A stretch of 63,824 bases of DNA, filler included, from Sphacelaria rigidula (GCA_964200075.2; 9 parts of 9 records of this genome joined end to end with filler, not necessarily neighbours in it); one strand, 5' to 3'. Shown: positions 3,648 to 46,782, counted from the first letter of the whole stretch. Numbers and translations: made by a program. Notes: generated from the letters alone by a model not told the origin.

Positions 3648-3878
3648 GGAGGGAAACTGTAATGCGTGAGAGGACGGCGTGCTTAGAGGACCGCATCGGG
3701 ATGTGAACGCCCCTGTGGTTAGGGCTAGGGCTAGTGTTAGTGTTGGGGTTAGGGTCAGGGGCGTGGTACCTCCAGGGACTGACCCGATTGGTTTTGAAAA
3801 ATGTCGATCCTGAGGTATTTTGAACTACGGCGCAGTCCTCTAAGCACGCGGTCCTCTCACGCATTACAAAAACCTCGT
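3648..3878. mobile_element. MITE with ~34-bp TIRs enclosing degenerate telomeric (TTAGGG-like) repeats
   Basis: TGTAATGCGTGAGAGGACGGCGTGCTTAGAGGAC (3658-3691) is inverted at 3836-3869. The interior contains GGTTAGGGCTAGGGCTAGTGTTAGTGTTGGGGTTAGGG. Confidence 0.75.
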
Positions 3879-7003: not shown

Positions 7004-7103
7004 NNNNNNNNNNNNNNNNNNNNNNNNNNNNNNNNNNNNNNNNNNNNTTAATTAATTAANNNNNNNNNNNNNNNNNNNNNNNNNNNNNNNNNNNNNNNNN
7101 NNN
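7004..7103. other. Artificial contig linker (44 N + TTAATTAATTAA + 44 N). Identical copies at 14107-14206, 21210-21309, 28313-28412, 35416-35515, 42519-42618, 49621-49720, 56723-56822
   Basis: The same 100-bp structure, with a six-frame stop core, recurs every 7102-7103 bp. The intervening contigs are 7003 bp (x6) then 7002 bp (x3). Confidence 0.98.
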
Positions 7104-14063: not shown

Positions 14064-14494
14064 TTCCGCGCCCCCGCTCGCGCCACCCCACCCCGTCTCC
14101 CTCTGCNNNNNNNNNNNNNNNNNNNNNNNNNNNNNNNNNNNNNNNNNNNNTTAATTAATTAANNNNNNNNNNNNNNNNNNNNNNNNNNNNNNNNNNNNNN
14201 NNNNNNTTGTAGGGATGCGAGGTCAATGGTCTGATGACTATGGCATGCACGATGATGAGTACACCCCCCTCCCCCGTCGCCAAGAATGAGGTTTTCGGGA
14301 ATCGGGGGCGGTGTGAAACGTATTCCAGTCTGTAAGGCTCGTTGAAGGAATCGATCCCGTCAGAGGATTGCGGAGGACTGCTCATACTCTCAAGTACGCA
14401 ACAGCGACCAAAGGGAGGGTATTACAGAATACTCTGAGGGTTGAGGGAAAATTACGCTGGATGGGAGCCAACTGACCACGTGTATATTTGGCAC

Positions 14495-14803
14495 ACAACA
14501 ATGTTTTTGTGAGACTGGGAGTAGCGGATACGATTGAGAGTGAAAAGCGGTCAGTTAGTTCATGAATCGTTTCAGTTCCGAAATGCCCCTGCTCCGCGAG
14601 GCCCGATATGCTTTCTGTAGTAGCTTTCCACAGAGGCCCTTGATATCCCTGAGTAGGATATCGACGTGGAGGTGTAAGCACAGGCCAGTGATGCAGGGTA
14701 GAAAAGCACACACGGAATGGATAATGGGCCAAGATACAGCGAATTATCAAAGCCACTCTCAATCAACGCTCTACTCTCAATCTCACGAAAACGTTGTTAC
14801 ACG
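14495..14803. mobile_element. MITE of about 300 bp with ~45-bp TIRs. Copies at ~17553-17835, ~28515-28815 and an inverted partial copy at ~28888-29110
   Basis: Consensus TIR ACAACGTTTTCGTGAGATTGAGAGTAGAG and its complement CTCTACTCTCAATCTCACGAAAACGTTGT. Shared core GATATCCCTGAGTAGGATATCGACGTG. Confidence 0.75.
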
Positions 14804-16443
14804 CATCAATCTTGAAACTACAGGTGGGTCCCTCTGGGATCAAAGATCAGCGATTAGATATCAGACATCTCTTGATGTGCGACAAAAAAAGAAAAAAAAA
14901 AGAAATCGACAACTCACTTAAGGCGTCCTTTTTCACCCACGCATTGAGAATCATTGCTTCGCGGGCCATATTTGTGGATTCAAGTACACCAATTTTCACA
15001 ACGACGTATCATAGCACACAAATGGTATGTTAAATGGACTCAAAAAATGAAGAACGGAAGCTTGTCGATTTACACACATTTTGCGAGCATTGTGAACGGA
15101 CTCAACCAATGAAAAACATCAACTTATCGAATATTTGAACCTGTAAACCACCACTACCACCACATAAATGCACTCAACAACCCCCGTCGGCATAGCCAGA
15201 AAAGGCCTTGAAGAAGCGAGTCTTCTATACCTTTTAAAAATGGTCGACGACTATCTACGACCCCCGTGTGTTGTACACCATCTGAGCCGACGTGCAGGGA
15301 TGCCAGCATACATACCGTGATGATGTCTAGTAGAACATTTTGAACAGATTTCACTCACCACTGCATTGTATCGCAACTTTAAAGGTGTTTCGTACTTACA
15401 AAGAAAGCCACGCAACGATGGGGATCGACAACATAACAGTAGAAAGGGGAGAGTGAACCTTACTCGTTCTCTGCTTCAGTGGTAGCAACCAGGTACAGCA
15501 CGGTATGTTATCAATCAGCCGCTGTGCTAATCACGTCCATTTCCGACTCGTGTCGGTTGTGCTTTTGTAATGAAACCACTGCACTGTGTACTGTGCTTCA
15601 CACGGAGATAGTTTACTTGTGAACCATACCGTATCTTGCCACGCTCTGAAGACGCCTGCCAGGTCTGCCAGTACGACGAAGAAGGTTACATACATTCATC
15701 GCTATTGCAGCAGTGTGCAAACGTGACAGATTAAAATTATGTAACATCCTTCACGCAATGTGGTATATTATTCCACAAGCTTTTCCCCACGCTATGACTC
15801 CAACGTATCGTGTTACCCACACGCCCGAGACACATCCAGTAACCATGTACACACATGTATATGTTGTGTGCTCAAACGTACTGCAATACACACTACGTCA
15901 GTGTATCGACAATTGCAACTCTGAAAAAACGCCACAAACTGCACACCCCACGTCGAAACGACTTGAATAACTCAGAACACGGAACATGGAACACGTCTCA
16001 CGCCACTGTGCTCGACGATTAATCGTACTAAGGCCGCGCACAACTCCCGACGAAGAGTTGAACGACTTGCACTACTGGTACTACTACTCGGATGCGGATT
16101 AAAACCTCACCTAGCTCCGTGATATGTGGGTGTATACGGACGGGGCACAAGTGAACTCGTTTTCTTAAGATGCCAACACAAACTCTTACGCAAATACATG
16201 TATATACGCATGCACACTAAACACACACAATCATCTCCTGAAACAAATGGCATATTCCATTTAAAGACGCCAACCAAGAGAGGGAAGTTGTGTGGGACAG
16301 GGCACATGCTCTGACGTATATGCGTTTTCAGGGTATATTGAGCACCCAACACCCGATAATCAATACTTAAAAGTACTCACTCAGGGCATCGACTGCCGAA
16401 ACTAGTGAGAATCCCGGAATACCTGTAGTACCGACAAAAAAAA

Positions 16444-16511
16444 GGGTTAGGGTTAGGGTTAGGGCTAGGGCTAGGGGTTAGGGGTTAGGGGTTAGGGGTT
16501 AGGGGTTAGGG
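16444..16511 (+). repeat. Interstitial telomere-like tract (TTAGGG/CTAGGG/TTAGGGG)
   Basis: Directly visible tandem units, well inside the contig. Confidence 0.9.
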
Positions 16512-17088
16512 ATCCCCTATCCAGTTTACCCGAGCACCCACGCGTATTCTTTGCCTTATCCTGCCTCGCCCTACCCTGAGCGCCTTTGCTACGTGGTTCA
16601 TTCACTCCCCCCCCTCCCCCAACAATGGTCAAACGACAAGGGCAAGCAACAGATGAATCCCCCCCCCCTCCCTCCCCGCGCGCACACCCTCCGTCACGAT
16701 CGTTCAAGTGAAGCGAGAACATCGACAAATGGTTCAATGGAGCAATACTACCTCCCGAAGGGCGCCCGCTTCCAAAACCCTTCATACTCATATACATATG
16801 GACTGCATGTGAAAAAGGTACGCCTTTAGTATACGGTAGGAATTTGCATCCGTCGAGAGTTCATATATATCTACACATGCTGTCGGCCTTCACTAACCCA
16901 GTACAGCAATGCCATTCCAGCTAATCGAATCAACCTGCATTCGTTCAATTCCCGTCTCGCCCGCTGTGCCTAGACCATCCGACGGTGCCAGCTTCCCGAA
17001 CCCCTGTTTCTGCGACATCCTCCAAAAGGCGAAAGGAGAAGTGGTCTTTGCTCGGTCGCGTAATGGCATACTTTGGAAGAAAATTCTT

Positions 17089-17240
17089 TCACCACGAGGC
17101 GATCCCTATCACGATGGCTTGCGCAATAGGGAGAATAAGAAAAAGTAGGCCAGCGCCACCAGCGACTGCTCGACGTCGCGCTCCACTGTATGACACGCCG
17201 TCGACAGTCACGCTTGAATCCCTTGTTACATATATATCAC
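17089..17240 (-). CDS. Terminal exon of Pmp-like beta-helix repeat (adhesin-like) protein, with a C-terminal hydrophobic GPI/TM-like tail
   Basis: ccacag|GT (phase 1). Translation (G)DIYVTRDSSVTVDGVSYSGARRRAVAGGAGLLFLILPIAQAIVIGIASW*, with the stop at 17089-17091. Confidence 0.8.
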
Positions 17241-17953
17241 CTGTGGGTGATAGTTAACGTAGAGGTATTATATGAACCATCGCAAAGGGTAGCGGGCAAC
17301 ACACCGATGAACCTCCTACCATTGGCTGTCATGTCATTAATGTCGAGATACTGACACACTAGAACGCGTGTACCACATACCACGTGGTATGGATTGTGTA
17401 CATATGTGATATGTGTTCGGTACTATATCGAGCAGCGAGTTCCCTCCCAGAGCCTTGCTGTACCACTTTTTTGGTATGAGAAAGACGGGCGACGGTAGAT
17501 TAGAGTAACAACGCGGAAAACGCACGAGCTGCAGCTTGTGAGTATATACATATGACAACGTTTTCGTGAGATTGAGTGTAGAGCGCTGATCGAGAGCGGC
17601 TTTGATCATTCGCTTCAACGTAGCCAATTTCTCATTCCGTGTGTGCTTTTCTTTGCCTCTATCACTGGCGTGTGCTTACAGCTACACGTCGATATCCCAA
17701 TCAGGGATATCAAGGGCCTCGGGGGCAAGCTACTGAAGGAAGCATATCGGGTATAAATTTATTCACAATTTGACCATTTTTCACTCTCAATCGTTTCCTC
17801 TACTCCCACTCTCACGAAAACATTGTTATTTACACGATGGCATTTTCCAAAAAACATCCAAGTCCTGACAACGCAATACGAGTTCAGGAGTAGATGAACC
17901 CATGGTAAAGTGAACTCTATATACGGTCGGTACTCGATGTCTCTGTCTCTCAC

Positions 17954-18034
17954 CGCCTTCCTTAGCCTCGTTGTCCACAAAATGTGGTTCGCCTACCATG
18001 GTGATGATCGAGTCCCTAGTCACGTAGACAGCTC
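17954..18034 (-). CDS. Pmp-like repeat exon (81 bp, phase 1/1)
   Basis: gcgcag|GA...G|GTGAGA. Translation (G)AVYVTRDSIITMVGEPHFVDNEAKEG(G). Confidence 0.85.
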
Positions 18035-18399
18035 CTGCGCGAGTACACATTCACACCGTGTCGAAGGAGACCGCGCACCAGCATGCAAAAATCGAATGTG
18101 TAGCATGACGCACCCAGTCACTCGAAGATCGATCGCAAACATAATTCAAACAAGCCCATCGATCATACCGCGGCATCGGGCACGGGTCGTCTAATATTAG
18201 ACTGCGTCATTCCAAACGCTGATGCAGCGACGATGGTTGGGTGATGGATCACACATTAACTGATGATCCCCGCGGAATTGTGCTCTGCTATCGATGAAGT
18301 CTCTGTGAAAACCACCTATCGGCGCGAGATCTTGTTGACGTCCCCATCGCTGTCAAAAATATATTTCGGACGCAAAACGAGCACTCGCGATGCACCGAC

Positions 18400-18790
18400 G
18401 AGCCCCGCGGGGCTTTTGCTAGTGTAAACGCATTACGTGTGTCGGTATTTTTATGGCGGTGCAAGACTTTGCGGGCGCACAAGTACGACATACAGCGAAA
18501 TGACGGTGTCGTGCGTTCAAACCAGATTTCCGTGGTACATCACGGACTGCATGCGGTTGATGGTGTGACCACACGATCTCGGCTTGAATCGTTCATCCGC
18601 CATCAAGGGAAGCAATGGCCTCTAGCAAGATATTTTCTCCCGTTCACGCGAACATACGAATGCACTCCTGGGAGATACTGTATACCAACCTTTGGCAGCG
18701 CGTTGATGGTGTGTCGCGCAGGGTGGCGTCACCCGCAATGTTCTTGCTGATCAAGTTGCTGCTTCTAAACCATATGCAATGGCTGCGGGT
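18400..18790 (+). pseudogene. Possible degenerate C-terminus of a restriction-like-endonuclease non-LTR retrotransposon, inside an intron
   Basis: Fragments RLESFIRHQG (cf. ESFGRLG) and LWQRVDGVSRRV (cf. LQ...ISRRV) in different frames. Weak. Confidence 0.25.
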
Positions 18791-18826
18791 ATAGTTCGCC
18801 TTTTGTACACACGCAGCGCAACTCAC

Positions 18827-18907
18827 CACCATCTTCCGTTGCCGTGTTTCCCCTGAACCATTCTGTGCCGGCCAGGGTAATGTTAGCCCACTGCACGTAT
18901 AGCGCTC
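18827..18907 (-). CDS. Pmp-like repeat exon (81 bp, phase 1/1)
   Basis: tcgcag|GA...G|GTGAGT. Translation (G)ALYVQWANITLAGTEWFRGNTATEDG(G). Confidence 0.85.
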
Positions 18908-19581
18908 CTGCGATTAGTTTGGTACAGGGGATAGTCATTCGGAAAGGCGAGGGAAAATTTCACACGGTGTTTCGCTGGCACAGGGCAGCAGATAATTTCA
19001 TAGCGAGACTCTGGGTTACTCGACCGCCAGTATAGCTCTGTCAGTGTCAGGCTCATCGTTGGGTAACGAAGGTTGGGGGTAGTACACTGCAGCGCGAACT
19101 CGCGGGTGGGTGCGTCAACGGTGACCTAGTCGAAATGGGCGGCACTGCCGGTATACACGCTCACTTGAGACGGCAATCCGTGGATGCAGTAGTAGAACAT
19201 TGCTCCCACCAAAAAACGCGATGCCAGTCTGTTGCGGCGAATCTGGGTGTCGTTATCCGCAATTATAGCTAGCCCGAGCGATCTCGTATCAGCGAACACG
19301 CCATGCATCCCTCGACACCCTGAGTTTTCGACCACTCATGCCCGGTGTCGTGCACTGTGCTGTGACAGCGTAAGCGAGTGCAAAACTACATTCCAACTGC
19401 GCTCGTCGAGTAAGACGAGCAGTCCGACCATGCAACAAGTGTCATTCAACGAGATATACATACAGACACCACAGTAGTGCGCTACCCTGCAGATTTCAGA
19501 CCATCACCCTAACGTCTGTCTGGAATGTAACTGCTAATGTGCTACAGGTAAAACCCACACCTAGCTCGAGCCGTCACTCAC

Positions 19582-19659
19582 CCCCAGCTATCCCGTGATT
19601 TTCGGTGAAGACTGTTAAGCCGTCGACGAACACGTCGCTGGAGAATACGTTCACGGCGC
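19582..19659 (-). CDS. Pmp-like repeat exon (78 bp, phase 1/1)
   Basis: ctgcag|GC...G|GTGAGT. Translation (G)AVNVFSSDVFVDGLTVFTENHGIAG(G). Confidence 0.85.
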
Positions 19660-20129
19660 CTGCAGAGGACAGCGAACCACATGCGAACCCATTGACCACA
19701 AGAATGGCGGTATCGAACGACAACGTGTCCGTGCGAGAAACATTTCAAAGACAGCCCTATCCCACCCGACGTTTTTAAAACAAGCTTATTTTTCCATGGT
19801 AGTATCGCCACCGCAAGATTTTCTGAACAAAGTCCATACGAGCACCCTGTGCCCCGTGAAATTCGCCCCGCGGTATTTCACGGCGGGGGTGAGTAACTGA
19901 TTCCAGACTGCTCGGCGATAAATTTTCGCTGCCTGTCGTATTCTTGCTCCTGTCTTTTTTCTGTCGTGCTGGCGGCTAAGATTGCGGTCTTTCGATAGCT
20001 GCTTCACATCCTTGTTCCACAGCCTTGCTTCTTATGGCATTCTTGCCTGAAGCCCCAGCCATGGGGCTCTCGGGAATTCTCTCGGGGCTTGCACTAGTTT
20101 CTAGCCTGGAGTCTACGCTAGGCCACTTA

Positions 20130-20270
20130 TCTGATTCATTGATTCATTGATTCGTTTATTCATTGATTCATTGTCGCACTTTATCTGACCCCCCAGGGAT
20201 CCGGCCGTGGTCTTATGATAGACGTACCCAAGAAAAGCGAAACTGATACACGCTCTGAAGAAAAATAAAA
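20130..20270 (-). mobile_element. Retroelement 3'-end family with an (AATG/AATC)n tail. Copies at ~21460-21580, ~46030-46148 (opposite strand) and ~57860-57980
   Basis: Shared TTGGGTACGTCTATCAT..GACCACGGC.GGATCCCTGGGGG..A..AAGTGCGACAAT core followed by a microsatellite-like tail. Confidence 0.6.
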
Positions 20271-20710
20271 TCGAACAGATCGATATACAGACCAAGTCGG
20301 GGCGGGAAAAAAAAGGAATAAAAAAGTCAACACAAGCAGAGCACAGAAAGAAATGGCCGACCTGACTACAAAAAAAAGTCCCTGTTTCTTTCATCGTATC
20401 CCATGTTCCCTGTCTTGTCGGCTTACCGTGGGATGAATGCTACTTCATCTCGCGACGATCGATGCATCCATGGATCAACAACGTACGCATGATGACTAAC
20501 CAATGTAGCACCCGCGACACATCAGCCGGGCAGTCACAGTACAGTCACGAACATTCGGTCTTTGTGTACTCAAACCTTCACCGTACCCGTGCCTACGATA
20601 AGCTTGTTCGAGGCCGTCCGTAGGAGCCTCCTTGACCATACATACGTTTGGCATGACAGACAATCGAAATGTCTGCATGTGCTTCCAGCATGACAGACTG
20701 AAAGACTTAC

Positions 20711-20788
20711 CACCGAGTCCCCCTGTGTTGCCGGTGAAGTGTACTTCACCAACAACAGTGGTCGCGCTTTCCCACAGCGTTAAGGCAC
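20711..20788 (-). CDS. Pmp-like repeat exon (78 bp, phase 1/1). The 5' part of the gene lies beyond the contig end
   Basis: acgcag|GT...G|GTAAGT. Translation (G)ALTLWESATTVVGEVHFTGNTGGLG(G). Confidence 0.85.
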
Positions 20789-21605
20789 CTGCGTTATCGA
20801 CGGACAGGCAGGTGGAGCCAATCAGCTAGCATTCGGGGTCAGTGAGTATCACTGGGGTACTACTGCACAAAAAAAGAGACAAGCAGTCTCAATGTGCAGG
20901 GATACGAGATCGGCCGAAAACCTTTGTACAGTAGATGTGCAAAGCTGTAGTTCAAAACAGTAGCTACCTCCAAATATATGAGGGAAAACCAGATGCCGCC
21001 AACAGCATGGTGCTTCTGGTCTGACATAAATCAGCAGCTTCAAGCAGTTTCAAATGAACACCCAGATGCAACTAGCTGTTGATCCGCACCTGATCTACAC
21101 ATAACTGTCCTTGCTGGACGAAACCCGTTCAGAATTGGAACAGAGGGGGTGTACTCATGATCATGCATGCCATAGTCATAAGACCATTGACCTCGCATTC
21201 CTACAACACNNNNNNNNNNNNNNNNNNNNNNNNNNNNNNNNNNNNNNNNNNNNTTAATTAATTAANNNNNNNNNNNNNNNNNNNNNNNNNNNNNNNNNNN
21301 NNNNNNNNNCCCCCCCACCTCTACAACCCTCTAAGTGAGCAAGTTTGATATGCAATTCCAAAAAAAAAACAAAAAATAACTTCCCCCCCCCCCCCCCCCC
21401 CCCCTCTCCCCCCCAGCATGTGGCGTGTGGTCCCCAGGGAACTCCAAAAATAAGTTTATTGATTTTGATTGATAGATTGTCGCACTTCAACTGACCCCCA
21501 GGGATCCAGCCGTGGTCACATGATAGACATGCCCAAGAAAAACAAAACAGAAACACTCGCTGAAGAAAAGAAGGAAACTTCACCGGTGTATTCCAATCGC
21601 CACCT

Positions 21606-35671: not shown

Positions 35672-37540
35672 TCACCACGTCCCCACAAAGGGATATTCAA
35701 TACGTCTCTCGCCTCCTTTAGAATTCAAGAGACTGAACGGGACAGAAGCCCCTAGCTTGAGAAGCACCCTCTCCTTCTCCTCCTGGGAAATATTGGGCGC
35801 CCCCACGACCCCTCGCAATGTGGTCAGCAGCTCCTGCGTGTACATCGTATTGTTCTTCGTGTTGGACTTCAACGCCGAATTTTTGCCCTGCGTGTTCGTG
35901 GGTTTGATTGCACCATTCCGGGACGGGATCGTATACACCTTTTGCTTTGTTGCGCCCTTTTTGGTCTGATCGCCCAACACGTAACAGGCGATATTATCGT
36001 GGAGCTTCGTCTGAGACACTTCGGAGCATGAAAGAACGGCCGCTGCATGCGGACCACTGAACACTCGCCCGTCTAGCGCATGCAGAACCTCTTTGCCAGT
36101 CGGTTGAAGGCAGGAGTACCGTGTAGCCTCTGATACGCCTGTCACGTGGGGTTCACGCTTGAGGTACAGCTCTCCTGCGGGGTTCCACCCGGCGCCCTCC
36201 CCGAAGAACAGTTGTTCCTTCACTTGTTGTTCTGCCACGTCTCGGCATTCCGCGATAGGAGCAAGCTTTTCCACCGCAGTAGGGGTCTTTTTGTTGACGT
36301 CTTGCTTGAAGAACCTGTTCGCCATCTCCTGCCACTCGTCGAGCCCCACTCTCGCCCAACTCCTGTTGTCTCGCAACGTCACGGAAAATAACTGCTCCGC
36401 GATCTTCAAGTCGGATTCCGGCATCTGCGCCATATGCATGAGGTGAAGGACCACCAGCCACTGGTAACGGTCTTTACCTGTCACACAGAATATGTCTGCC
36501 ATTCGGCGAAGGCCTGCCAGTCGAAGGGGGAAGTTTCCCGTGCGCAGGCCCGTCCGGAACGCCATATACGCTGGATAATAGTGGAGGACGAAGCTCTCCC
36601 ACACTTGGAACCTCTTGTGGTTTGCTGCACGCGCCCGAACCCAAGCTCGAATAGCAGGGATATCTTCCTTCCTCGCATGTGTTTTCACCTTGTTCGCTCT
36701 GTCGCGGAACTCTTGTGCTAACTGCTCAACGGTTTTCCCGAAGGGGTCATGATCGTCATTATATTCGCGTCGCCGACCCTCGGCCGCCGCTGCCGCTGGC
36801 CCAGTACAAGGGGGTGCCACTGATGCGATGTCGGCTGTGGAGTCCGTCCGACTATCACCCACCGCGGCTGGTTCTGCGCAGTCGGTAGGGGATAATTCCA
36901 TGCTGACGGCGGCCGATGCTCCGGCGACGGGGCCGCCTGCTACTTCCGTGCCCCTGACGCCGGCCGGCGCTCTTCCGCTGTCGTCGGTGGACACGAACTG
37001 CACAGGTCCTGATTCTCGGAGGTCTACCAGTCCCGTACTGGCGTGGAAGACGCAGAACACCGGCGCATCGAGGCCCGCGATGCCATGCGTTGCTTGCCAG
37101 GAACAATCCTCCCCACGACACTGGATCTGCCCGGTAACTATGGGGTCGAAAGGTGGAGGGCTCGGCGATCGCAATGGTTGCTGAGGCGTGCTAACGACGT
37201 TCGTTGGCCGCGCAGAACCCGCGACCGCTGCGGCGTGAGAAGCGGACGCCAGGTTATTGCCGAATGGAGGTGCGACCCTTCGCTCATTCCGCATGGGCGG
37301 TACGGGGGTGGAGTGCGCACGTTGTACTCCGGTGGGGGAGTTCGGCGGCACAGGAGTTCCTCCCGCGGCGCCCTGCAGAGGGGCGGCTGATTCCGCGGGG
37401 TCCGGCACTGGCACTGTGGCGGCAGCCGCGGCTTCAACAGCCGACCCCGGCCCATCCCCAGCGTTGGTGTCTTCCATACTGGGCCCACGCTCGGAGTAGT
37501 ACATGGCCACGATTTTGTTCCACATGGCTTCGAAGAACAC
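35672..37540 (-). pseudogene. Largest open segment (622 aa) of the Academ-like transposase, containing an EsV-1-7-type Cys/His motif at ~37019-37120
   Basis: Long GC-rich ORF. CRGEDCSWQATHGIAGLDAPVFCVFHASTGLVDL fits the EsV-1-7 repeat pattern C-x4-C...G...C-x2-H-x3-G(M/L)V(N/D). Confidence 0.7.
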
Positions 37541-40130
37541 GCAGATGGTGTGGTGCGCGACACGGTAGTTGCTAGCCTCCGATGATTTCCTCCCGTCCAG
37601 TCCAAGCGCCTCCGCTACGTATTCGATCCCCGCTCCCCAATATCACTTCATGATCGCCTTCGCCATGTGATATAGGAGGTGCCAGTCACCTACGTATACC
37701 CGGGACCATTGGTATTCGCGGGGATTACTCCGAATGAGGTGGTACATGAACCGAAACGTCTCCTTGTCACCGGCAACCATACACGCAGCAGGCGCGCCCC
37801 TCTCACCCACGCGGCGTATGTCAGCAATGCAGTCAATCGCTGCTTTCGAGTCGGCCCAGCTCTTCGTGCTCCAACTGCATGAAAACGTACTTAAACACTT
37901 GGGGCTCCCGCTGCATCGTTGGTACTGCCTGCGTCGCAATTTCAACAGTGCGGCGGAGAGAGGACTGATGAGGTCGCTGTAGCACAGCGTTGTATATTTT
38001 CAAATCACGACGTAAACCCCGACCCCGTGGTGACAGTATCCGCCGGGTCAAGGGATCATGCGGTAATTTCGCTTTCGTAAGCCATGCACATCGGCATATT
38101 GCGTTTCGACAATCATTTCCCACACAACTCGTGCTATGCTGCCAACGTTGGTGTTGCAGCTGACATTGTCACGTGGGGCGAAGGCGATAGTGTGATCCCT
38201 CCGTGGGGGCGACGAATTGGCATCTACAGGACAATCCAACCCGCCCTACTCCCGCAGAATCCATGGCGGGCAATGCGTGTGCATCAGCGGGGCACTGCGA
38301 CTGTGGGGGTGCAAAGCTGGTACTGACACGCGGGAGACGACGCTGGAGTGGATTGGCGGCACACCCAATCGCAGCCGCCGGAGTTCAAGAAATCGACTTC
38401 GCACGGGTATTCAAACGCAACATACAGGCACAGATAACTCATCTCACCTATCGAAGTTCGAGTTCCAAGCAAGTGTCGATGGAGCCACCCTCGCCTACGA
38501 TCCTTCCCACCGCGCATCGAAAAGCTGCTTTGTCGAACACGGAGAGGTATTTGTCCCATTGCTCGCCATCCATGTGCCAGTGTGGTCCCGTCGTTACATC
38601 TGCGGCCACAAGTTGATCTTGCTTGCGATGGTTCTGTACGAGAGACAGGTCACCGCACGGGGTTTCCACCGCCACGCAAGTGGCAGCCACAGCACACACA
38701 TGCACATCCCCCCCATTAACAGCCATCGTGGCCCGAAAGTCGCAGTTGTCCCAAGGGATCGCAGCAGCTCTTAACGCAAGCGCCACCAGATGCTTGTCCA
38801 ACCTCAACTTCACGAAGTACTGCTCGCGCATGTATCGCATACACTCGGTCGTGCAGAAGCCGTGAGCGGCGACGTAATCTATGACCGTCACAGGTGTGCC
38901 GTGCGCTTTCAAGACCTGCGCCAAATTGAAGTCATGCATCGCCCTGAATTTCCGACCTAGAACAGTTTTCAGGAGATTTTGCACCAGTATAAAAATTCTC
39001 CAAAGCTGCATGTTTCTCTTCCTCTTCTTCCGCAAAGCCTTCTCCCGTTCTATCGATCTATGAATCGTTGCACTGTCACTTGACTCCCCCATAGCGCTGG
39101 TACTTGGCACACCAGTGATCGTTGTTGTCGCGCTCCCCCTGGCAGCGAGCCCCAACCCGGGGTCATCAGCTGGTACCACCACATGGCACATACTGTCAAG
39201 CAAGTCTAACAGTGTCGACGGTGTATCGTGCTCCAGGAAATTTTTCACAGGCCGGATTTTTCTCTCCAAGTCGCCGCATATTTCTCACTCGCGTTCCCCG
39301 ACACGTTATGCAGTTCAGTCGCACGTTCGATGTGTTTCCTGACGATAGATCCGGCCGCTCTCACCAACGCCCGTTTATCCTCCGCGGACCCTTGTGGAGC
39401 TGGGCGTCCAGGAGAGAGACCGTACGTGCGAGTTCTTGTACCCAAGCGCGCATAGTTCTGAGATCCATATCAACTGCCATCGCTACCTCGGGCGCCACCG
39501 CCGAAGGCAGCAGATACACGGACTTTCGTCGGCAATCACCTGCGGCCTCCCCAACCCCGCTCACCTCTTTCATCTTGGCGTGGGCTGTGCCGCCCTTCAT
39601 CACCGTGCCGAAAATCGCCATAGCCTGATCCCGGTTGCGCCGGTCGCCGACAGTCCGGGCCCGTGCGGCCTTCCTAGCTTCTGTCAGCCACGATTGGACC
39701 TCCCCCAGGCTCACTACTCGCCCCGCCTCAAGGTTCGCTATTACTCTCTCGCGTACTTCTACGACGAAGTCCAGGTCGGCAGGGGCAGGATCAAGAGTGA
39801 GGTCTACCGTTCAAGGCGTGGGACAACGCGCGCGAGTGGACTTGGTCTTTTGCCTATCGCTGTTGCGTCTGTATCGCTCGAAGGAGGGCAGAAAACAATC
39901 ATTCCGGCTACACAAGCAATCGGAACTAGGTTGGTACCTCTGCACAAGCACAGCGGAGCACGCGCTACTGCCATCCACACACTGGAGGAATACCTCCGCC
40001 TCTGCAACCCGCGCGGGACCGAGATGGGGCCAGCTTTTTCCTTCGCCGGGCCCGGGTCGATGGCACGCCACGCATAGACGCGATGCAGAGTCGTGTGTTT
40101 TACCACAAGATGAGCACATATATCACTGAC
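35672..40130 (-). mobile_element. Decayed Academ-like (AcademX-type, DUF6589-like) DDE transposase coding region. Upstream low-complexity coding-like sequence may extend to ~41460
   Basis: Colinear motifs across frameshifted ORFs: N-terminal Cys cluster (39811-40119), AAGSIVRKHI, IPWDNCDF..T...G..VH (~38740-38755), AGDKETF (~37760), VGDWHLL (~37680), TGKDRYQW, LDEWQEMAN (~36320-36343) and a C-terminal VPFSLLNSKG. In-frame TGA at 37643-37645 and several frameshifts. Confidence 0.7.
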
Positions 40131-46752: not shown

Positions 46753-46782
46753 TTAGGGTTAGGGTTAGGGTTAGGGTTAGGG
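46753..46782 (+). repeat. Interstitial (TTAGGG)5
   Basis: Perfect telomeric hexamers inside the contig. Confidence 0.9.

Follow-up and report, generated by a model that had tools for sequence, protein, structure and literature searches.

The DNA analysed here, a window of 63,824 bases from the brown alga Sphacelaria rigidula, is made up of nine pieces, the third of which (14207-21209, 7,003 bp) carries a fragment of a split gene on the minus strand. Four small exons, here called A to D, are followed by a terminal exon that ends in a stop codon, and each of the small exons encodes one unit of a repeat of the kind known from the polymorphic membrane proteins (Pmp) of Chlamydia. We consider it likely that the fragment comes from the 3' end of a brown-algal gene that encodes a Pmp-type beta-helix, one coil per exon, and that its product is a probable surface protein. 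In the direction of transcription, the parts of the fragment are as follows (nt, nucleotides).

21209-20789, minus strand: next upstream intron, partial, at least 421 nt
20788-20711, minus strand: exon A, 78 bp, phase 1/1; unit (G)ALTLWES...HFTGN...GLG(G)
20710-19660, minus strand: intron A/B, 1051 nt, phase 1
19659-19582, minus strand: exon B, 78 bp, phase 1/1; unit with VFTEN...IAG(G)
19581-18908, minus strand: intron B/C, 674 nt, phase 1
18907-18827, minus strand: exon C, 81 bp, phase 1/1; unit with WFRGN...EDG(G)
18826-18035, minus strand: intron C/D, 792 nt, phase 1
18034-17954, minus strand: exon D, 81 bp, phase 1/1; unit with HFVDN...KEG(G)
17953-17241, minus strand: intron D/terminal, 713 nt, phase 1; holds an element of about 280 nt resembling a miniature inverted-repeat transposable element (MITE) at 17546-17827
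17240-17089, minus strand: terminal exon, 152 bp including the TGA stop at 17091-17089

The four introns between these exons are all GT-AG introns, with donors of the form G/GTGAG or G/GTAAG and acceptors of the form [CT]GCAG/G or CACAG/G (the slash marks the splice site). Every intron is in phase 1 and splits a glycine codon as G/G[TCA], and the lengths of the internal exons are all multiples of three, so that skipping or duplicating any one of them would preserve both the reading frame and the glycine at the joint. Exon A, the first exon visible on the contig, has the acceptor aacgcag/GT and the donor G/gtaagt. The split gene fragment is confirmed as real on the strength of exon junctions read from the sequence. 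These results uphold an initial annotation of the locus, which had described four 78-81-bp exons of phase 1/1 with one unit each and a terminal exon composed of S-G-A, a basic spacer, a hydrophobic tail and a stop; both descriptions hold on the minus strand, with GT-AG introns and the terminal exon at 17240-17089. Its further claim that a GGA motif is completed across every splice junction stands for the A/B, B/C and C/D junctions (GGA[LV]) but not for the D/terminal junction, which reads GGD-I.

Each small exon encodes a unit of 26-27 residues with the pattern (G)A[LV]...G...F..N....G(G). The spliced reading of 156 residues contains four FxxN and three GGA[LV] motifs, the fourth joint being the GGD-I of the D/terminal junction, and the GGA motifs arise only on splicing. 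The terminal exon starts with half a unit, (G)DIYVTRDSSVTVDGVSY, which matches positions 1-17 of the unit profile with an E value of 1.6e-7, and exon C contains one N-x-T sequon (NIT). The contig stops at 21209, and the gene is therefore truncated there, with its 5' part lying outside; the 421 nt between exon A and the contig end contain no further unit.

The units were also weighed against chance by a leave-one-out test, in which a profile built from the remaining units was run against the 2,519 six-frame open reading frames (ORFs) of the window. Every omitted exon came out as the top non-training sense ORF, with E values of 5e-5 (A), 0.13 (B), 0.049 (C) and 1.8e-7 (D), although the antisense reading of exon A outscored exons B and C. 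That reading (20694-20780, plus strand) is an FxxN-like peptide, VAGEVYFTNNSG, which matches the unit profile with an E value of 0.001. The codons for V-G-E-V-H-F-T-G-N in exon A form an imperfect DNA palindrome, and it is for this reason that the opposite strand also reads as an FxxN-like peptide, which is probably a coincidence of codons (GGT/ACC, GAA/TTC). Run against the whole 63.8-kb window, the full unit profile found no further sense ORF with an E value below 2.

Membership of the Pmp family rests on what the unit profile retrieves. Searched against 1.84 billion representative proteins, the five-unit profile matched 47 at E <= 1e-3 and 3 at E <= 1e-10, and the Pfam family PF02415 (Chlam_PMP) lay above its gathering cut-off (20.6 bits) in 16 of the 20 top hits and in four of the five further hits tested. 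Of the remaining four in the top 20, two are Por-secretion-tail proteins, a third has only sub-threshold matches to miscellaneous families, and the fourth is P0011, a 64-amino-acid (aa) ORF that is a copy of exon D. Names could be found for 3 of the 20 hits looked up, namely the Ascophyllum nodosum protein CAN0286448.1, the Laminaria digitata protein CAM9564572.1 and a JGI "predicted outer membrane repeat protein". The proposal that the units are Pmp-type repeats is thus borne out, since the profile made from them retrieves PF02415 proteins. The 19-residue Pfam model itself covers F..N.A...GGA[IV]Y, a segment that runs from the last part of one unit into the first part of the following one. 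A local stand-in model was made from 12 Pfam-matched segments of the hits; with it, the spliced reading took first place among 2,520 sequences (26.5 bits, E 5.7e-7), the best unspliced ORF reaching 15.4 bits. Four matches were placed on the spliced reading, each across a junction residue (27, 53, 80 and 107), and it is therefore the proposed splicing that creates the family signature.

The same stand-in model bears on the upstream boundary of exon A. On the minus strand at 20789-20825 the frame of this exon stays open for 12 more codons upstream, ending in ...SVDNAG, a string with a faint resemblance to the end of a unit. An in-frame upstream extension of the exon (LIGSTCLSVDNAG before the acceptor) was considered and rejected: it obtained no score with the stand-in model, and the acceptor is like the other three.

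A clue to the full architecture of the family may come from P0039, a full-length relative of 932 aa. Its start resembles a signal peptide by eye, its cysteine-rich stretches contain the Pfam LNR (Notch) domain, and downstream of the LNR lie 15 Pmp-type units as detected with the profile from the window; over its C-terminal part it shares 40% identity with the Laminaria protein P0030. Searches of annotated proteins found no full-length orthologue of the window gene, and with P0030 as the query against metagenome contigs 81 stretches were matched, none of which was a relative.

The repeats had also been proposed to form a beta-helix, and the repeat period fits this, being that of a single coil: it is 26-28 residues in the homologues, as against 26-27 codons per exon here. 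In chlamydial Pmps the FxxN/GGA repeats are reported to form single coils of a parallel beta-helix, one coil of PmpD being shown as running from residue 615 to residue 641 (PMC11166332). The best reading of the correspondence is that one exon would encode one coil, with the intron always placed in the GGA turn. The Ascophyllum relative (166 aa) was modelled with AlphaFold2 from an alignment of 20 sequences; the model has a mean predicted local distance difference test score of 97.1 and about three strands per 27 residues. The AlphaFold check suggested at the outset did return a predicted right-handed beta-helix, for this homologue and not for the protein of the window itself. Compared by a wider structural aligner with solved right-handed beta-helices, the model resembled the phage tail protein 8egr_A (Z 15.6, 1.8 A over 140 residues), the pectate lyase 1ee6_A (Z 14.1), the autotransporter Vag8 (7akv_G, Z 12.7) and the pertactin entry 2iou_H (Z 10.3). 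A Foldseek search of the PDB with the Ascophyllum model gave no match at E <= 0.001, and the unit profile, searched against PDB sequences, returned four rows only, at chance level (E 0.13-0.44). From the modelled homologue we infer that the protein of the window would itself adopt a right-handed parallel beta-helix fold.

At the C-terminus, an S-G-A triplet is followed by a 10-residue spacer (R-R-R plus seven small residues) and by a hydrophobic stretch of 19 residues, with the stop directly after it. Hydropathy is 1.8-3.0 over the last 25 or so residues, and the 19-residue stretch, in which there are a Pro and a Gln, is moderately hydrophobic. To the eye, this looks like the layout of a glycosylphosphatidylinositol (GPI) attachment signal, with a small S-G-A, a polar spacer and a terminal hydrophobic tail, and it agrees with the GPI-type C-terminus that had been read there before.

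Several observations weigh against the reading of the fragment as the end of a gene for a surface-attached Pmp-type beta-helix. No Pfam family was found at E <= 10 in any of the five single-exon peptides; the PF02415 model straddles the intron, so single exons fail to match it, and their silence is no evidence against the family. The stand-in model is a proxy for Pfam on the spliced reading, and a word-indexed protein search that used an alignment of the four exon ORFs as its query found no relative among 1,652 candidates. The evidence for the fold is the model of a homologue, not of the protein of the window, and AlphaFold2 has been reported to over-predict beta-solenoids for repeats (10.1101/2024.10.30.621056). 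Concerning the tail, the N-terminus lies beyond the contig end at 21209, which places any signal peptide, needed for GPI anchoring, out of view. A word-indexed search of longer proteins with the terminal exon gave none among 238 candidates, the same exon matched 599 pattern stretches in metagenome contigs with no relative among them, and none of the 44 retrieved proteins that match the spliced reading, many of them partial, has a similar C-terminal tail, so that the tail is uncorroborated by homologues. In addition, the R-R-R just ahead of the terminal hydrophobic segment would also suit a tail-anchored cytosolic protein. Tail-anchored proteins are expected to have a basic cluster on the N-terminal flank of their hydrophobic segment. 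The gene and the fold could accordingly be as described while the hydrophobic end, a 19-residue segment at the very end with R-R-R before it, serves as a membrane anchor, either a cytosol-facing tail anchor or a type I span without a cytoplasmic tail, and the trichomonad Pmp-like proteins do use a C-terminal transmembrane domain (PMC6701047). We hold this to be unlikely: the protein ends with the hydrophobic stretch, in which Pro and Gln occur and whose hydrophobicity is only moderate; the small S-G-A triplet 12 residues upstream has, by eye, the usual layout of a GPI omega site; a type I span would place the R-R-R on the outside, contrary to the positive-inside rule; and a cytoplasmic tail with sorting motifs, as in the trichomonad proteins, is absent here. 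Furthermore, the relatives look secretory (the signal-peptide-like start of P0039, judged by eye, and its LNR), which favours GPI anchoring over a tail anchor, and exon C has its N-x-T sequon.

The age of the exon copies is relevant to two other interpretations. In pairwise comparisons exons A-D, of 78, 78, 81 and 81 bp, are 49-59% identical at the nucleotide level. Between units there are 93 identical aligned residues, 58 of which are on different codons; what keeps the units alike therefore acts on the protein, and recent copying of DNA does not account for the likeness. The introns are mutually dissimilar except for inserted dispersed repeats, such as the element of about 100 nt in intron A/B, which includes an 8-nt tandem run, ATTCATTG, present four to five times at 20134-20173; GC content is 55% in the exons as against 45-53% in the introns. 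The divergence of the exons, the lack of relation between the introns and the transposon fragments inside two of these mark the copies as old. Two ORFs from other assemblies add to this comparison. P0011, which is probably from the same species as the window, agrees with part of exon D and the read-through into the intron in 62 of 64 residues, and P0032 matches exon B in 22 of 27 residues, while the intron before exon B aligns with it only with stop codons in the window, which indicates that the exon has been kept better than the intron. The array fits an ancient exon duplication under protein-level selection.

The symmetric one-coil exons had been taken for a candidate diversifying system, in which a surface recognition or adhesion protein would be varied by skipping, duplication and exchange of exons between paralogues. 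Two of the premises are sound. The exons are indeed symmetric (phase 1-1, multiples of three), and any subset of exons B-D could be removed or repeated without a frameshift, all joints remaining G-G-[A/D]; and one-repeat-per-exon genes with leucine-rich repeats (LRR) or tetratricopeptide repeats (TPR) do exist in Ectocarpus (PMC3341825, PMC11378527), brown algae handling their 72-bp LRR exons in just this manner, alternative splicing included (PMC11378527; PMC3341825). A beta-helix should moreover tolerate the gain or loss of whole coils. The conclusion drawn from them finds no support. The exons, of unequal length (78 and 81 bp), are only 49-59% identical, the introns are unlike and 58 of the 93 shared residues are on different codons; nothing points to a recent event of duplication, exchange or homogenisation, nor is there a paralogue in the other eight contigs of the window. 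Introns of the same place and phase follow automatically from the tandem duplication of one exon-plus-intron unit, for which selection for shuffling is not needed, and in a genome-wide screen of Ectocarpus, pairs of symmetric exons of equal length were almost only found at LRR/TPR loci (PMC3341825). We therefore give such a cassette system little chance. A bolder form of it, in which the locus would represent a third brown-algal class of exon cassettes beside LRR and TPR, extracellular and GPI-anchored, with coils added, dropped and swapped to tune a recognition or adhesion rod and with the visible exons as the stable 3' end of a larger dynamic array off the contig, is highly improbable. Finally, the exons might belong to a decaying, unexpressed Pmp-repeat pseudogene in a repeat-rich region: dispersed repeats crowd its introns and flanks, there is a telomere-like tract about 570 nt past the stop, and the annotated-protein searches mentioned above found no full-length orthologue. 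We see only a small chance of this, as the five exons are open and the eight splice sites canonical, the unit consensus has been kept though the codons differ, and exon B is in frame in a diverged copy, whereas the adjoining intron carries stops in the window.

Returning to the surface-attached Pmp-type beta-helix protein, which remains our preferred reading, its origin and function may be pictured as follows. A nuclear brown-algal gene would encode a protein of the secretory pathway whose body is a right-handed parallel beta-helix of FxxN / GGA[ILV] repeats. Each 78-81-bp exon would supply exactly one coil of 26-27 residues, the intron lying in the second Gly codon of the GGA turn, and the simplest account of this regular layout would be ancient tandem duplications of one exon-plus-intron unit. 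After duplication, the exons would have been held by protein-level selection, whereas the introns would have drifted and gathered transposon fragments. The S-G-A site, the spacer of basic and small residues and the hydrophobic end would most likely lead to GPI anchoring, which would in turn display the helix on the cell surface or in the wall. The displayed helix could then act as a rigid scaffold for binding or adhesion, by analogy with the bacterial and trichomonad Pmp-like proteins (PMC6701047). GPI anchoring, surface location and an adhesive role are what we infer for the protein from its tail and its relatives.

The remaining features of the window concern the contig and its genome. Repeats and neighbouring elements are given below by their positions.

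7004-7103, 14107-14206, 21210-21309 and five more at a spacing of about 7.1 kb: linkers, N44-TTAATTAATTAA-N44
14207-14268 and 21145-21206: 62-nt dispersed repeat, inverted copies, 94%-complementary, at both contig ends
14497-14806 and 17546-17827: MITE-like element of about 300 nt, two inverted copies 83-86% alike
16440-16515: telomere-like tract, (TTAGGG)n grading into (TTAGGGG)n, directly after an A run
35672-37642, minus strand: 656-aa ORF on piece 6, with 4 database relatives, all brown-algal

The nine pieces are of 7,003 or 7,002 bp and are separated by identical linkers (44 N, TTAATTAATTAA, 44 N). Their near-equal sizes, together with the dispersed repeats found at several piece ends, suggest that they are whole contigs of a fragmented, short-read-like assembly. 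The 62-nt repeat at both ends of the contig with the gene also occurs in pieces 4, 6 and 9, and the assembly is likely to have broken at 14207 and 21209 because of it. With the possible source study set aside, the runs of two further studies contain 57-69% of the sampled words of the contig. The long introns of the fragment agree with descriptions of brown-algal genes in 10.1101/2024.02.19.579948, and an Rfam scan of the contig gave no match. The best relative of the 656-aa ORF on piece 6 is a Sphacelaria rigidula protein (83% identity), the others being from Scytosiphon and Ectocarpus; one relative carries PF20231, and the ORF itself matches the EsV-1-7 cysteine-rich motif weakly (22.1 bits, cut-off 25). 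It probably belongs to a mobile or virus-derived brown-algal gene family, and an ESM Atlas search with it gave no usable match. Features on the GC-rich piece (57-60% GC) lie at 35672-37642 and at 38448-39284, both on the minus strand. Piece 6 and the ends of piece 3 have the 62-nt repeat in common (94% identity). The ORF, the shared repeat and the long introns together point to a brown alga near Sphacelaria as the source of the window. An origin of the gene from a contaminant was considered and rejected, because dispersed repeats of this contig recur in other contigs of the window, the piece with the Sphacelaria-like ORF among them.

As for the smaller elements, copies of the 100-nt element of intron A/B are present in pieces 4 and 7. 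The inverted MITE-like copies flank the terminal exon and the region downstream of it, and there are more copies at the start of piece 5. The telomere-like tract past the stop of the gene may be an interstitial telomeric repeat or the end of a retroelement; short look-alikes occur in piece 1 (3717-3761) and piece 7 (about 46753-46782).

The Pmp family as such is not new to eukaryotes or to brown algae. Pmp-type repeats have been described in trichomonads (PMC6701047), a unigene of the family has been reported from Saccharina (PMC10573767), and the family is already present in annotated brown-algal proteomes (CAN0286448.1, CAM9564572.1). A literature search, which covered papers without their supplements, found nothing linking Pmp repeats with brown-algal gene structure. 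The main text of the Phaeoexplorer preprint contains none of the words "Pmp", "polymorphic" or "beta-helix", though its supplements may list the family; no algal title was among those listed for Chlam_PMP/PF02415, and of the papers listed for "polymorphic outer membrane protein" together with brown algae, the Saccharina paper alone contains the phrase. What the locus offers, then, is a tidy correspondence between exons and coils and a possibly new GPI-type attachment.

This combination has several implications. The structure of the gene would mirror that of the protein, an exon corresponding to a coil of the beta-helix and an intron to its constant turn, and repeats best known from Chlamydia and trichomonads are present in ordinary, intron-rich nuclear genes of brown algae, where the proteins may have a GPI-type link to the membrane. 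For annotation there is a warning in the straddling of the intron by the PF02415 model, in that the family escapes altogether when single exons or unspliced ORFs are scanned for domains. Should the cassette idea hold, the "shuffled receptor" story of brown algae would extend to an extracellular fold, a direction in which the evidence so far does not point.

Several known systems come close to the fragment. Among them are the Pmp-type repeat proteins (PF02415), including the brown-algal CAN0286448.1 and CAM9564572.1, which likewise have FxxN and GGA[ILV] every 26-28 residues. The Ascophyllum protein is predicted to be a right-handed beta-helix, as modelled with AlphaFold2; the hydrophobic tail found here, in contrast, is in none of the retrieved Pmp-repeat proteins. 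The chlamydial Pmp autotransporters have the same motifs, one repeat forming one coil of a long beta-helix according to two reports (PMC11166332; PMC10715098). They are, however, bacterial type V autotransporters with a middle domain, a C-terminal beta-barrel and no introns, whereas the gene in the window has a short hydrophobic C-terminal tail and long spliceosomal introns. An autotransporter beta-barrel is absent from its true C-terminus, where 19 hydrophobic residues are followed by the stop and the last exon has no Pfam family. The trichomonad Pmp-like surface proteins are eukaryotic and have retained the Pmp repeat region only, the bacterial C-terminus being replaced by a eukaryotic membrane attachment (PMC6701047). 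That attachment is a transmembrane domain with a cytoplasmic tail bearing endocytic or sorting motifs, whereas the window gene has no residue past its hydrophobic stretch, and an exon-per-repeat structure is not described for the trichomonad proteins in the excerpted text (PMC6701047).

In its gene structure, by contrast, the fragment resembles the brown-algal ROCO and NB-ARC-TPR genes, which also have one repeat per small symmetric exon, long introns and a frame-safe loss or gain of exons (PMC3341825; PMC11378527). The exons of those genes, as reported by Zambounis et al. 2012 and Teng et al. 2024, are of equal length (72 bp and phase 2 for LRR) and highly similar to one another, and the genes, which encode intracellular proteins, show shuffling, positive selection and alternative splicing (PMC3341825; PMC11378527). 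The one-repeat-per-symmetric-exon arrangement is found here in four consecutive exons, but the equal length and close similarity of the exons are not. Compared with the ROCO and NB-ARC-TPR genes, the gene in the window combines a beta-helix coil repeat with long-diverged phase-1 exons of 78-81 bp in a protein that looks extracellular.

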